A DNA stretch of 64,000 nucleotides from a virus. A program made the position numbers and the translations under genes. Below the pieces are notes generated by a model, which ran no database searches, had not been told where the DNA came from, and worked only from the letters and a program-made list of their open reading frames with translations. This document shows positions 13,390 through 55,447 of this stretch, in pieces. The stretch is taken from IMG/VR virus record IMGVR_UViG_3300027733_002357. One strand, written 5' to 3'. Within the stretch, counting starts at the first letter, position 1. Every line of letters starts with the position of its first letter.

Positions 13390-13427
13390 AAATCATTTTT
13401 TTATTCATATAGTTATTTCTATATTTG
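13390..13427 (+). promoter_or_regulatory. conserved promoter: AAATCATTTTTTT, 17 nt ending TTTC, TATATTTG (-7 box)
   Basis: Read directly in sequence; same architecture upstream of 7 other genes. Confidence 0.6.
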
Positions 13428-13446
13428 AATTATAAATTTAAACGTC

Positions 13447-13782
13447 ATGGAAAAAAACACAGCACAAGTTCTTAACAACATTCCAGTAGGAATGGGATTA
13501 AAAGAATATTTTAACTCTTTGGATGCTTTCCAAAAGAGAGATCTAATCGACGAAATTAAAGAAATCGCTGCTTACTGGGTTTCTAAGTCTAAAAAAATGC
13601 TACCTTTGGCAATTCTTTCTTACTTATGTTCTTTTGTGTGTTATTTTGGAACTGATCAATCTTGGGCTGGATGGTATCTTTTTGCTATCAATATCCCTTT
13701 GACTTTTATCCTATTCTTACATTACAGAAAAGCATACAAATATTCTATTGCTGCTAATATTCTGGAAAAAGAGTTAGTATAG
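13447..13782 (+). CDS. small membrane protein (2 TM)
   Basis: Hydrophobic segments; preceded by the conserved promoter. Confidence 0.45.
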   Translation: MEKNTAQVLNNIPVGMGLKEYFNSLDAFQKRDLIDEIKEIAAYWVSKSKKMLPLAILSYLCSFVCYFGTDQSWAGWYLFAINIPLTFILFLHYRKAYKYSIAANILEKELV

Positions 13783-13809
13783 TAATAAGATATCACTGAT
13801 ATATAAAGA

Positions 13810-14409
13810 ATGAAGCACTTATCTTTATACGAGAATCATAAATCAGATCAGTTTAGTTCAGAGAATGATCTTGTAAATTTTCTAATAGCTAATGATATTC
13901 CTGTAGAACAATGGGGGAAGGGAGCAGCAAAAACTGTTAAACACCTTTACAACGAAATATTGGAAAAAGAAAGTGTTTTATCGTATATTGATGGTAAGTT
14001 AATAAGAAGTATAGAATTCGTTAGTGCACAGATATTCTACGATAGCCCTGGTGGTGTTTTAAAGCTGGTAGAGGAAAAACAGATATTCAAAGATGGTAGA
14101 GTTAGATCCAGATATTTAGAAAGCTCGGTTTCGGAGAAAATGAAAGCTGACGAGGGTCCAAGGAATAGTATTATTAGGGGAATAGAAGAGGAGCTTAAAA
14201 TATCTATATCAATGGATCAGATAGAGGCGAATGGAAATATAGATGAGACTGAAGAGTCTAATTCTTATCCTGGACTTCTTACACGTTATAATGGATATAA
14301 ATATAAAATAGAGCTCAGATCTCATCAATATAGGCCTGAAGGATATATTGAACATCAAAGAGATAAGTCTACATATTTCAAATGGGAAATATACGACTGG
14401 GAGAGGTAA
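13810..14409 (+). CDS. hypothetical protein with the N-terminal leader (MKHLSLYENH)
   Basis: Leader-family N-terminus. Confidence 0.5.
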   Translation: MKHLSLYENHKSDQFSSENDLVNFLIANDIPVEQWGKGAAKTVKHLYNEILEKESVLSYIDGKLIRSIEFVSAQIFYDSPGGVLKLVEEKQIFKDGRVRSRYLESSVSEKMKADEGPRNSIIRGIEEELKISISMDQIEANGNIDETEESNSYPGLLTRYNGYKYKIELRSHQYRPEGYIEHQRDKSTYFKWEIYDWER

Positions 14410-14717
14410 AAGAAACTTTTAATGTAATTTGGTATAGGATATTATACACAATCTAAAACGCCTCATTATGGGAATTTTTAAAAATGTATTTCTAACCCTC
14501 GGTTTTAACATCAATGTAAATTTCAAAAATCTTGTCCAAGTTAGGAGAGCTAAAATGATCGAGGAAGGTTACGATGTCTCTTCTATTAATTGGGATTTGT
14601 ATGCTAGAGTATTAGAGGCTAAGAGAGAAATGCTATCTAAAGAGTAAAAAAGCGTAAGAATTAAGGAAAGTAATAAAATCTTTTTTGGTATTTGGATATA
14701 TAATAAAAAAGAAATTG

Positions 14718-53871: not shown

Positions 53872-54447
53872 ATGGCTGAGATAGTTACTCTAACAAAAAC
53901 TGAGTATTTAATTGGTCAATTAGATGAAGATCCTAATCCGATAATAGACATGATCCTATCCAATTATAACGAGGGTAGGAACATGTCTAAGGATATTACC
54001 AATATAAGATACGAGGACATCCGAATAAATTTTACCCCACAGATACAAAGAATTGCAAAAAAACTTTGCGATGAATGGTATGAATCATTTGGTAAAGAAA
54101 TCGAATTATGCTGGCAAAATAAAGAAGGACAGGATCCTAATTCATCATTCTGGGCAGTGATACACAATCCAAACGAATCAACTAATCTGCATTCACACGA
54201 AACATCGGACAACTATGAAAGCGGTGCTCACGTTAGTGCAGCTATATGGGTACAAGTTCCTCCTAATAGTGGTAACCTAGTATTCCAATATAATGTTAAT
54301 CCGTATAAAGTTCGTCAAGAAGAGATTGAAGCTAAACCGTGTAAATTTGCAATGTTTGACAGCACATTACCACATTACGTATCTAAAAATTTAAGTAATG
54401 AACAGAGAATTGTTATAAGTATGAATTTCAGGTACAAGAATTATTGA
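53872..54447 (+). CDS. 2OG-Fe(II) oxygenase superfamily protein (PF13759-like)
   Basis: 'LHSHETSD...AAIWVQVP' and 'FDSTLPHYV...RIVISMNF' fit the H.D/E...H pattern of the phage-type 2OG-FeII family. Confidence 0.45.
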   Translation: MAEIVTLTKTEYLIGQLDEDPNPIIDMILSNYNEGRNMSKDITNIRYEDIRINFTPQIQRIAKKLCDEWYESFGKEIELCWQNKEGQDPNSSFWAVIHNPNESTNLHSHETSDNYESGAHVSAAIWVQVPPNSGNLVFQYNVNPYKVRQEEIEAKPCKFAMFDSTLPHYVSKNLSNEQRIVISMNFRYKNY

Positions 54448-54485
54448 AATAATTGGATAAATAGCATTAAATAAAACTAAAAAAA

Positions 54486-55085
54486 ATGTACACAAGAGAA
54501 CAAATTGAAGGTGCTATTAAAGCTAAAGGTTATGTCTATTTTGAAGACGCTAACAACAAAGGATTTGATGTTAACATTATTGGGATCCGAAATTCTTCTA
54601 CCGGACAGAATGTTACTAATGCTTTTGATGATCTATTAACTATATCATACAAGGATGAAACTGGAGCTTGGAAATATCACGAATGGCCAGCTACAACTGA
54701 TCCAGGAAAGAAAGGGGTTTTAGAATATCATAACGCAGCTGGTGTTGCTAGATTGGTAGAGGGACAATATAGAGGATCTCATACAATTAGATTACACCAA
54801 GGTAAATATGAAGCATTAGGTCAAGCTAAAAACGTTAAAGTTTATAGAGACGCTAACAAAGACCTAAATTATGACGAGAATAAAATTCAAGAGGGTGTTT
54901 TTGGTATCAATATTCATAAAGCTGGTGCAGATTCTACTTATGTTGAAAACTGGTCAGAAGGATGTCAGGTATTTAAAAAATCCGCTGATTTTGAAGAGTT
55001 TATGAAAATTTGTAGAAAATCAAAAGATTTACACGGTAATTCTTTTACTTATACTTTAATTGAATCTACGGATATTAAAGCTTAA
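54486..55085 (+). CDS. hypothetical protein, possibly L,D-transpeptidase (YkuD)-like
   Basis: 'GINIHKAG....SEGCQVF' loosely resembles the IHGT...SHGC(I/V)R catalytic motif. Confidence 0.3.
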   Translation: MYTREQIEGAIKAKGYVYFEDANNKGFDVNIIGIRNSSTGQNVTNAFDDLLTISYKDETGAWKYHEWPATTDPGKKGVLEYHNAAGVARLVEGQYRGSHTIRLHQGKYEALGQAKNVKVYRDANKDLNYDENKIQEGVFGINIHKAGADSTYVENWSEGCQVFKKSADFEEFMKICRKSKDLHGNSFTYTLIESTDIKA

Positions 55086-55348
55086 ATTCTAGTAATCTTA
55101 ACATTCAGGGGAGTGGAGCCTTTTATAATCCGGTGCCATTCCCCTTTTTTTATTTCTATAACACCTTCCATTTTAATTGGAAGTTTGTCGTCGAATTGAA
55201 ATTTCCAGTCGTTATCGTTTAGTATCTCTACTACTCGATCCTCCATATCTATATGCCACTTAAGTTCTTCGTCCATTAGATCAGGACTAAAAGATCTTAA
55301 AGATACTTTATCAGAAACCCAGGATTCTTCGAATGGTAATTCACTCAT
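55082..55348 (-). CDS. hypothetical small protein
   Basis: 88-aa ORF. Confidence 0.35.
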   Translation of the reverse strand: MSELPFEESWVSDKVSLRSFSPDLMDEELKWHIDMEDRVVEILNDNDWKFQFDDKLPIKMEGVIEIKKGEWHRIIKGSTPLNVKITRI

Positions 55349-55409
55349 GCTTTATATATTTTAAAAACTAAAACCGATAATTTGTGTAAAAATACTAAAT
55401 ACTAAATAG

Positions 55410-55447
55410 AAATCATTTTTTAATTTAATTAGTTTTTTCTATCTTTG
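55410..55447 (+). promoter_or_regulatory. conserved promoter (AAATCATTTTTT, 18 nt ending TTTC, TATCTTTG)
   Basis: Sequence pattern upstream of the nucleotidyltransferase gene. Confidence 0.55.

Follow-up and report, generated by a model that had tools for sequence, protein, structure and literature searches.

The housekeeping sigma factor of Bacteroidota, sigma-A (sigma-ABfr), reads promoters composed of a -33 TTTG and a -7 TAnnTTTG element. In Flavobacterium johnsoniae, the -33 element is weak and the -7 box takes the form TAHHTTTG, with G avoided at positions -10 and -9 and transcription starting 4-5 nucleotides (nt) past the box; AT-rich motifs are found at -18 and -28 (PMC6847099). The box occupies the same position in F. 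psychrophilum, where 5.5% of mRNAs are leaderless (PMC9723704). Almost nothing is known about how phages take over transcription and translation in this phylum, which is abundant in water and in the gut and whose machinery for both processes deviates from that of the E. coli model. T4-type phages carry cassettes termed PeSL (promoter-early stem-loop) that combine promoter and repeat (Arbiol et al., 2010, PMC2839356; Comeau et al., 2014, PMC4122927). Here we describe a family of promoter-like cassettes in a 64,000-nt stretch of viral DNA (IMG/VR record IMGVR_UViG_3300027733_002357, analysed at its full length and hereafter called the window), for which a first-pass annotation had reported eight intergenic sites of common architecture. 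In a full member, a hexamer RAATCA is followed by a run of T (T-run), a 17-nt spacer and a box of the Bacteroidota -7 type. With moderate confidence, we regard these cassettes as probable strong promoters of the phage that are recognised by the Bacteroidota-type RNA polymerase of the host together with housekeeping sigma-A, and that probably act early.

Geometry and distribution of the cassette

The composite motif AATCATTTTT-N19-TAnnTTTR occurs seven times in the window, compared to 0.00 matches expected from 100 dinucleotide-preserving shuffles. The matches are located at positions 13391, 24590, 25006, 28416, 34959, 40936 and 55411, all on the plus strand. An equal frequency of the motif inside coding regions had been named in the first-pass annotation as speaking against its proposal; instead, all seven matches sit between open reading frames (ORFs) and are aimed at the next plus-strand ORF, in a window whose intergenic share amounts to about 6.7% on a crude ORF map. 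The only further copy of AATCATTTTT, at 45562 on the minus strand, is found within a gene and lacks a box.

A scan of IMG/VR for the composite motif retrieved 85 loci. In blastn comparisons, contig IMGVR_UViG_3300009068_000049 (contig 049, 55 kb) shows 94-98% identity to the window in aligned blocks, contig 3300032307_000764 (contig 764, 248 kb) about 80%, and 3300042307_001176 and 3300032219_002522 72-80%, while 3300027734_000044 (contig 044, 130 kb) and 3300036770_006296 (207 kb) have the motif and some genes in common with it. The motif marks a clade of uncultured large phages with contigs of up to 248 kb. A weight matrix was built from 82 sites of these related contigs only, all of them outside the window, and its null, obtained from block-shuffled sequence, reached a maximum of 8.0 bits. 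With this matrix, the sites at 13390, 55410, 25005, 28415, 34958 and 24589 score as full members at 34-49 bits. The elements reported in the first-pass annotation are found at all eight of its coordinates, and its observation is borne out with caveats for two of them: the claim of one shared architecture holds for the six full members, whereas 40935 and 51258 (placed at 51263 in the annotation) belong to the family only in part. At 40935, both elements are in register and the score is low because the spacer does not fit the family; at 51258, which lacks RAATCA, the full-matrix score of 16.2 bits rises to 34.5 bits on masking of the AATCA columns. In seven of the eight sites, (A/G)AATCA is followed by six to eight T and its first base is placed exactly 30 nt ahead of a TAnnTTT(G/A) box. 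The TTTC described as directly preceding the box is present in six of the eight but not at 28415 and 40935, and the TAnnTTTG box equally in six, with TAnnTTTA at 24589 and 40935. The sequence TTTC-TAnnTTTR occurs nine times in the window where 1.8 copies are expected, and six of these copies are sites of the annotation. The eight sites are as follows:

13390-13427, plus strand: cassette; AAATCA 13390-13395, T7 13396-13402, 17-nt spacer ending in TTTC, box TATATTTG 13420-13427; 49.2 bits, exact composite match; predicted +1 at A 13432, ATG at 13447, predicted leader of about 15 nt.
24589-24626, plus strand: cassette; AAATCA-T7, spacer ending in TTTC, box TACCTTTA 24619-24626; 34.0 bits; predicted +1 at the A of ATG 24631, leaderless candidate; back to back with the minus-strand gene 23960-24556.
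25005-25042, plus strand: cassette; AAATCA-T7, palindrome AGAAATTTCT in the spacer, box TAAATTTG 25035-25042; 40.2 bits; predicted +1 at the A of ATG 25047, leaderless candidate.
28415-28452, plus strand: cassette; AAATCA-T7, palindrome AGAATATTCT in the spacer, box TAGATTTG 28445-28452; 37.5 bits; predicted +1 at A 28457, ATG at 28475.
34958-34995, plus strand: cassette; AAATCA-T7, spacer ending in TTTC, box TATATTTG 34988-34995; 34.8 bits; predicted +1 near 35000, ATG at 35013.
40935-40972, plus strand: weak or atypical member; GAATCA-T8, non-family spacer, box TAAATTTA 40965-40972; 5.6 bits; GTG 40977 of a Metallophos gene exactly at the predicted +1.
51258-51295, plus strand: partial member without RAATCA; TTTTCT-T8, family-like spacer ending in TTTC, box TACATTTG 51288-51295; predicted +1 at the A of ATG 51300 of a small protein; endolysin gene 51597-52439 (PG_binding_1, GH19) downstream.
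55410-55447, plus strand: cassette; AAATCA-T6A, spacer ending in TTTC, box TATCTTTG 55440-55447; 42.8 bits; predicted +1 at A 55452, ATG at 55463 of a gene of the tRNA nucleotidyltransferase/poly(A)-polymerase family (Pfam PolyA_pol, 1.3e-19).

The cassette at 28415 may overlap the 3' end of a mechanically called 74-residue ORF (28223-28447, plus strand), if this ORF is real.

The anatomy of the motif across the clade was derived from a logo of 89 distinct sites from the window and its relatives, for which only AATCATTTTT and TA..TT in register had been required. In a numbering that follows the F. johnsoniae convention (T-12 A-11 T-8 T-7 T-6 G-5), AAATCA is located at -42 to -37 and the T-run at -36 to -30, by which the latter, with its 17-nt spacer, occupies the place of the -35/-33 element. 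At positions that had not been selected for, G is found at -5 in 77 of the 89 sites and C at -13 in 60, next to a T-rich stretch at -16 to -14. G is nearly excluded at -10 (5/89) and -9 (1/89), the spacer shows the signals AGAA at -21 to -18 and TTT at -28 to -26, and the fifth base past the box is a purine in 83 sites (93%). The family hence contains the -7 element of Bacteroidota sigma-A (TAnnTTTG/TAHHTTTG, -12 to -5) but lacks the -33 TTTG expected some 19-21 nt before the box, where the T-run is located instead and is followed by G in only 7 of the 89 sites. The annotation was right in that the canonical TTTG is absent from these sites, yet by stating that the upstream element replaces it, the contrast was overstated, as the -33 element is weak in Flavobacterium (PMC6847099) and the T-run is found at the -33/-35 position.

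As a check for a selection artefact, RAATCA and everything upstream of it was masked and a new scan was run in which sites had to exceed a score of 18, the null peaking at about 10.6. Among the 136 sites obtained, 113 (83%) carry [AGT]AATCA, and in about ten more a single base is changed, most often the final A; RAATCA is hence no product of the selection but a real additional element. Its distance to the box is fixed: in 132 copies of AATCA followed by five or more T, the box is found at offset 29 in 119 and at offset 30 in one, with no box in 12. In the 119 copies, RAATCA is placed exactly 24 nt ahead of the box, and T-run lengths between 5 and 8 have no effect on this distance. The spacer further contains a dyad, TAGAA-NN-TTCTA (-22 to -11, centred at -16.5), which overlaps the TA of the box and is illustrated in the window by AGAAATTTCT at 25023-25034 and AGAATATTCT at 28433-28442; in one subclass it is moved by 2 nt. 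Its mean best arm of 4.24, compared to 3.86 +/- 0.10 in column-permuted controls, reflects a weak but significant excess, and the dyad could either constitute an operator for a dimeric regulator or be a mere side effect of A- and T-tract preferences.

Outside viruses, the cassette is almost absent. A strict composite, AATCATTTTTT-N14-TTTCTANNTTTG, was sought in 596 Gb of bacterial and archaeal genomes, in which 185,579 species are each represented once, and was found at ten loci only. Four of them are single matches that fail the full matrix, and the only three with multiple copies are contigs of 5-7 kb with 7-11 cassettes each, all from one metagenome-assembled genome (MAG) named 'Chlamydiales bacterium' (L090, L091 and L095; JBEIFG010000127.1, ...110.1 and ...090.1). 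As these contigs are packed with cassettes and match the phage arrays described below, they appear to be mis-binned fragments of this phage clade. The annotation had called the family virus-specific, which agrees with this distribution, and a host promoter class is ruled out for the strict composite. No cultured phage with the cassette was found among the sequences searched, a blastn search with a 7.9-kb array returning chance-level matches only. A match in FpV4 was rejected since it is intragenic, on the opposite strand, and contains no AATCA, and the first 50 kb of Flavobacterium phage immuto contain no copy. Our literature search found no paper linking TAnnTTTG with phage promoters of this kind.

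Start codons and a second motif near them

The first ATG that opens an ORF of at least 40 codons follows the box at bimodally distributed distances, with 4 nt in nine cases, 5 nt in one and 6-12 nt in none, while most others are at 13-29 nt. With the start placed 5 nt past the box, predicted leaders are either 0-1 nt or 9-25 nt long, with none in between. This bimodal spacing makes a leaderless subset a well-supported prediction. The start codons at 24631, 25047 and 40977 (GTG), which had been described as 4-5 nt past the box, are each exactly 4 nt away, and the same applies to ATG 51300, which had not been listed as leaderless and whose ORF has an N-terminus, MKKSFLILSLISLSFLQSC, that by inspection reads like a lipoprotein signal peptide, a weaker line of support than exists for the other three starts. 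For 24631 and 25047, the protein N-termini are kept in the contig 764 ortholog, where the spacing is 5 and 4 nt, respectively. At 40977, a Pfam Metallophos match extends from residue 3 of the GTG-initiated protein and, by inspection, the differences in contig 049 just past this position are synonymous in the GTG frame. A leaderless GUG at this site would be unusual, and the Metallophos gene might alternatively be translated from read-through of the upstream operon. The description of transcripts as often leaderless is fair for the window, with four of eight sites as candidates, but modest for the clade, where the predicted geometry concerns 10 of 89 sites, or about 12% of cassettes.

A second motif, G-ATATATA-R, is also associated with start codons. 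With 30 copies in the window compared to 39 expected, it is not above chance overall; 24 of the 30 have the ATG of an ORF of at least 50 codons within 40 nt, 13 of them at 4-6 nt, whereas such an ATG is found in only 13-20% of cases for composition-matched control words. Examples of this motif are located at:

plus strand: 52-58, 578-584, 1465-1471, 2817-2823, 4105-4111, 13799-13805, 28916-28922, 31488-31494, 33420-33426, 37687-37693 and 51573-51579.
minus strand: 2802-2808, 12641-12647, 33058-33064 and 55353-55359.

On both strands, the copies are found ahead of a virion-structural-type gene, other minus-strand genes, the endolysin gene and internal genes of cassette-headed units, and the 31-bp gap at 2797-2827 contains two divergent copies that are each 4-5 nt from an ATG. 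The motif may represent a late promoter class, similar to T4 TATAAATA, that gives rise to leaderless mRNAs, or it may be a translation-initiation signal. Its presence suggests that the temporal classes proposed in the first-pass annotation are more plausible, although it does not prove them. One run of minus-strand genes (61511-62278, 62275-62637 and 63083-63922) shares AACAAGAACA directly before the ATG, with listed minus-strand start coordinates of 61498-61511, 62265-62278, 62624-62637 and 63909-63922.

Conservation, gene modules and phage background

The cassettes are far better conserved than their surroundings. Between the window and contig 764, promoters are 97-100% identical, compared to about 80% in adjoining coding DNA. 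Within 24500-25070, coding sequences share about 81% identity while the divergent intergenic region containing the 24589 promoter is nearly invariant, with AAATCG, the box TACCTTTG and an ATG 5 nt past the box in the ortholog. At 25005, a single mismatch in 38 nt is flanked by coding DNA of about 81% identity, with 4 nt between box and ATG in both contigs. The 28415 promoter differs from that in locus L001 by two mismatches, and a three-way alignment of the 34958 promoter that includes a relative of 72% identity shows AAATCATTTTTTT and TCTATATTTG as invariant, whereas spacer and flanks diverge. At the atypical 40935 site, contig 049, with 87-94% identity, has a T-run that is one base shorter and the box TAAATTTG. 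The observed pattern of promoter conservation would be expected from purifying selection.

In the relatives, the cassettes form arrays in which one copy is found ahead of each small ORF, with 17 copies in 11 kb in L004, 15 in L027 and 14 in L072 at a threshold of more than 20 bits. Gene duplication was ruled out as a source of these repeats since the ORFs behind the cassettes are mutually unrelated: an all-against-all blastp comparison of 44 first ORFs from the window and contig 764 recovered only orthologous pairs and one paralogous pair. The repeat families extend over 49-76 nt and comprise an upstream TTTC, RAATCA-T7, the spacer, the box and often also a leader with AACCAATTAAA. A comparison of the array L072 in contig 764 with the reverse complement of the syntenic L027 in contig 044 (L027rc) revealed five synteny blocks that start, to the base, at cassette starts in both contigs (3188/6809, 5563/9559, 6053/10552, 6401/11086 and 8352/12648), with a shift in the offset at every block. 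By inspection, whole cassette-plus-ORF units are inserted in one of the two genomes, as illustrated by a 263-codon ORF between the cassettes at 8708 and 9559 of L027rc, which is absent from L072, where the same upstream GC-rich element directly abuts the cassette at 5563. A comparison of the window with contig 764 likewise shows replaced segments adjoining cassettes. Between related phages, insertions and deletions of gene modules are delimited by these dispersed repeats, a property absent from the first-pass annotation.

Several further elements accompany the cassettes. In a subset of gaps in the relatives, the cassette is preceded by a conserved GC-rich element (GTGGGCTAAGGTTTT ... GGAACCCC) and this in turn by an intrinsic terminator, and the full composite consists of a GC hairpin with T6-7, GTG(G/T)GCTAAGGTTTT, about 20-25 variable nt, (C)TG(G/A)GGAACCCC(C/A)G, 20-50 nt and RAATCA. 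It is found in L004 at 721-811, 1799-1912, 6632-6724, 7316-7432 and 9774-9921, in L072 at 5480-5562 and also in L027, L095, L091 and L090. There are 34 GGAACCCC cores in 14 loci and none in the intergenic regions of the window. The composite has no Rfam match in L004, L027, L072 and L035, and no tRNA was detected in nine loci scanned. Many array cassettes contain the leader element AACCAATTAAA, usually as CTAAGTAAACCAATTAAAC, between the predicted +1 and the ATG (for example L004 2209, 3369, 6767, 8920 and 9406), where it may have a role in translation or stability. The window as a whole shows no enrichment of this element, and one exact copy there (50810-50820, minus strand) is found behind an ATATATA motif in the leader of a 643-residue gene (48867-50798). 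Tandem pairs of cassettes occur 92-103 nt apart (L035 3231/3324, L006 732/640, L039 234/337 and L056 4645/4542) and enclose a conserved stretch of about 55 nt (AGTTCCAAAAGAGGGACAA.ACCAAACAA), which may encode a small RNA or be just part of a double promoter.

In the window, the cassette at 34958 heads a plus-strand run that includes genes for a ClpP-like protease (37105-37677) and a Dda-like helicase (38423-39853; Pfam, PHROG), and 24 of 30 proteins scanned from cassette-headed units are without any Pfam match. The minus-strand blocks at 8194-12636, 42106-50798 and 56598-63922, two of which hold structural-type genes, are cassette-free both inside and ahead. Two hairpins followed by a T-run resemble terminators and were found by inspection:

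16249-16278, plus strand: terminator-like hairpin and T-run, CCCTAGAA-loop-TTCTAGGG-TTTTTT, absent from the list of a consensus terminator scan; putative end of the unit begun at 13390.
30388-30417, plus strand: terminator-like hairpin and T-run, AGCCTAG-loop-CTAGGC-TTTTTT; putative end of the units begun at 25005 and 28415.

The window is without a close match among 50,697 deposited phage genomes (megablast) and appears to be part of a large uncultured phage. Searches against Pfam and PHROGs identified a Gp23-family capsid-like protein (57928-58797, minus strand), whose nearest isolates, Flavobacterium phage immuto and the Tenacibaculum phages PTm1 and PTm5, share only 25-33% amino-acid identity, and, besides the proteins named above, an endolysin and a tRNA nucleotidyltransferase. 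A Por_Secre_tail domain (type IX secretion sorting) and an Ig_7 CHU_C domain (43597-45345, minus strand) were also identified, both of which are Bacteroidota-specific. In light of these domains and of the capsid relatives in Flavobacterium and Tenacibaculum phages, the host very probably belongs to the Flavobacteriia or to another Bacteroidota class. Promoters of the sigma-70 type are not enriched in the window (91 matches compared to 97 expected) and were ruled out, and no tRNA genes or Rfam families were matched in the window and the arrays searched. The window also contains a sugar-modification cluster at 16279-23244 (DegT aminotransferase, glycosyltransferases, hexapeptide acetyltransferases) and, in otherwise 34% GC, two GC-rich intergenic segments that form hairpins (1363-1461 and 50951-51040) and have no tRNA or Rfam match.

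Promoter reading and comparison with known systems

The co-orientation with genes, the host-type box with its avoidance of G at -10 and -9, the purine at the predicted +1 and the near-full conservation next to flanks of about 80% identity support the interpretation as a promoter family that had already been offered in the first-pass annotation. From the motif, its geometry, conservation, virus specificity and location at module breakpoints, all directly observed, we infer promoter activity along the following lines. The TAnnTTTG box (-12 to -5) would serve as the -7 element of sigma-A, with transcription starting at the purine 5 nt past the box, and the T-run (-36 to -30) would take the place of the -33/-35 element. 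The spacer features (TTT at about -27, AGAA at about -20 and TTTC at -16 to -13) would match the AT-rich periodicity of host promoters, and RAATCA (-42 to -37) would provide one more contact further upstream. This contact could be made by the polymerase as such, through the carboxy-terminal domain of its alpha subunit (alpha-CTD) or sigma region 4 in the manner of an UP element, or by a form of the enzyme that the phage has modified. A single gene or a short operon would be driven by each cassette, in most cases accessory genes of unknown function; in about one of eight cassettes the start codon would coincide exactly with +1 and yield a leaderless mRNA, and leaders of 9-25 nt are predicted for the others. 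Since the cassettes are near-identical repeats of about 50-75 nt, recombination would also take place at them, by which related phages would gain, lose or exchange gene modules. The arrays of small genes of unknown function, the cassette-free minus-strand blocks and the analogy to T4 suggest that the class is early (pre-replicative).

Several observations weigh against such direct and early use by the host polymerase. The canonical -33 TTTG is absent and 25 of 89 boxes (28%; TATATTAG) carry A in place of the host's nearly invariant T at -6, as a consequence of which recognition by unaided sigma-A might be weak, which would favour a helper factor. Some cassette-headed units hold genes that are not necessarily early, such as those for the ClpP-like protease and the helicase, and the partial site at 51258 stands ahead of lysis genes. 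The zero-variance spacing and the high identity of the cassettes could in part have originated from recent copying instead of constraint. Finally, a GTG at +1, as found at 40977, is a poor leaderless start by the rule known from E. coli.

The main rival explanation is a class of activator-dependent 'middle-type' promoters, where sigma-A would read the box and a phage-encoded monomeric activator bound to RAATCA, with or without the T-run, would replace the recognition of the -33 element, so that transcription would be turned on only after early proteins have been made. Such an activator would find a non-host hexamer at a fixed distance from the box, which is non-palindromic and in this respect similar to a MotA box, and the missing TTTG and the boxes deviating at -6 would fit a dependence on a helper. 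The replication or nucleic-acid type of some downstream genes (Dda-like helicase, tRNA nucleotidyltransferase and phosphoesterase) points in the same direction. In contrast, the dense arrays with one promoter per small gene (17 in 11 kb) resemble early rather than middle regions of T4, and T-run, AT pattern of the spacer and box already resemble a good host promoter (PMC6847099). Moreover, RAATCA is located at -42 to -37, upstream of the place where a replacement of the -33 element would be expected, and no MotA, AsiA or other activator candidate is found among the best 25 of 60 Pfam families of the window, a weak negative that extends to sigma genes in the best 25 families per library. We regard this activator-dependent class as possible but unlikely.

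Promoters read by a phage-encoded sigma factor or RNA polymerase, with a box that merely resembles the host -7 element, appear improbable. Some jumbo phages encode their own transcription machinery, and the virus specificity of the motif and its invariance, which exceeds that of typical host promoters, would both be accounted for. However, the box copies fine detail of sigma-A promoters (TAHHTTTG, G at -5 and a purine 5 nt past the box; compare PMC6847099), no sigma or polymerase family is among the best-listed Pfam and PHROG matches of the window, which covers part of a genome, and G-ATATATA-R is a better candidate for a class specified by the phage. We assign the lowest probability, which is very small, to a dispersed repeat that is no promoter but a recombination or mobility site, a terminator tail, or a replication or packaging signal. 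The location of cassettes at the boundaries of insertions and deletions would be in line with this proposal, as would the terminator and conserved GC-rich element preceding many of them in the relatives, and a T7 run could in principle be the tail of a terminator. Yet co-orientation, host-type box, +1 purine and the quantised distance to the start codon are promoter traits that a recombination site would not need, and a role in recombination is compatible with a promoter, as in the PeSLs of T4 (PMC2839356). The T-run as tail of an intrinsic terminator was ruled out since at all eight window sites no stable hairpin abuts it: upon folding of the 53 nt ending in the T-run, we obtained energies of -0.1 to -6.8 kcal/mol with z-scores of +0.3 to +1.5 in seven cases and of -1.5 in one.

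The direct reading of the cassettes by host sigma-A is the interpretation that we favour. In a more speculative and rather doubtful extension, RAATCA would be bound by a yet undiscovered phage factor, either synthesised early or brought in by the virion, that retargets the Bacteroidota polymerase in a manner resembling sigma appropriation; together with G-ATATATA-R, this would give the clade a largely leaderless programme with two promoter classes. We know of no takeover of this kind in Bacteroidota.

With about 130 aligned natural promoter variants of precise geometry and an extra element, the family lends itself to direct study in vitro, and the cassettes are candidates for strong and compact promoters in Flavobacterium genetics. 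They also provide a natural data set to compare leaderless with short-leader initiation in a phylum that lacks Shine-Dalgarno sequences.

The cassette is of the sigma-A type in its -7 half but not in its -33 half. It shares with sigma-ABfr promoters the TAHHTTTG box and the inferred start 4-5 nt further at a purine (PMC6847099, PMC9723704), AT-rich features near -18 and -28 and short leaders without a Shine-Dalgarno sequence. In contrast to these promoters, it contains a T5-8 run and RAATCA at invariant distance instead of the -33 TTTG, TTTC directly 5' of the box and A at -6 in 28% of boxes, the composite is nearly absent from bacterial genomes, and the leaderless share of about 12% of cassettes exceeds the 5.5% of mRNAs in F. 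psychrophilum.

In T4, middle promoters combine a MotA box with the sigma-70 -10 element and are activated by sigma appropriation through MotA and AsiA, whereas the extended conservation of early promoters has been linked to alpha-subunit contacts and ADP-ribosylation. The cassettes resemble the middle class in joining a host-type downstream element to a phage-specific, non-palindromic upstream box that replaces a canonical element at a fixed distance. They are not MotA-dependent promoters as defined in T4, since RAATCA is unrelated to the TGCTT-type box and is placed at -42 to -37 instead of about -30, neither MotA nor AsiA is seen among the best 25 of 60 Pfam families, and the gene context looks early. 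The likeness to T4 early promoters concerns host-sigma promoters that are more uniform and extended than those of the host, with conserved upstream positions and many small early genes (touched on in PMC2839356), while the host grammar differs.

The PeSL cassettes of T4-type phages are similar in being dispersed repeats of about 50-75 nt with a strong promoter core of the host-sigma type and an AT-rich upstream part, which are present in tens of copies per genome, mostly ahead of small genes of unknown function in variable regions, and at which breakpoints of insertion, deletion and replacement between related phages are located (PMC2839356, PMC4122927); the phage described here even shares a capsid-like protein of the Gp23 family. 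The differences concern the promoter grammar, which follows the Bacteroidota -7 element and not the -35/-10 elements of sigma-70, the RAATCA hexamer at a fixed distance in place of a generic AT-rich region, and the absence of a Shine-Dalgarno sequence with a predicted leaderless subset. The core here has no stable stem-loop, only the 5-bp AT palindrome TAGAA-NN-TTCTA, and terminator hairpins are separate and located upstream of some copies only. The family thus shares with PeSLs the repeated host-type promoter, the location next to genes of unknown function in variable regions and the breakpoints, but it falls outside the PeSLs in the strict sense, as it lacks an internal stem-loop and follows another promoter grammar. 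Within the literature searched, the motif is new and works like T4 early promoters and PeSL cassettes. The concept of promoter cassettes as modules through which accessory genes are shuffled by recombination is extended to a distant lineage of phages with another promoter grammar, which argues for the generality of this mechanism.

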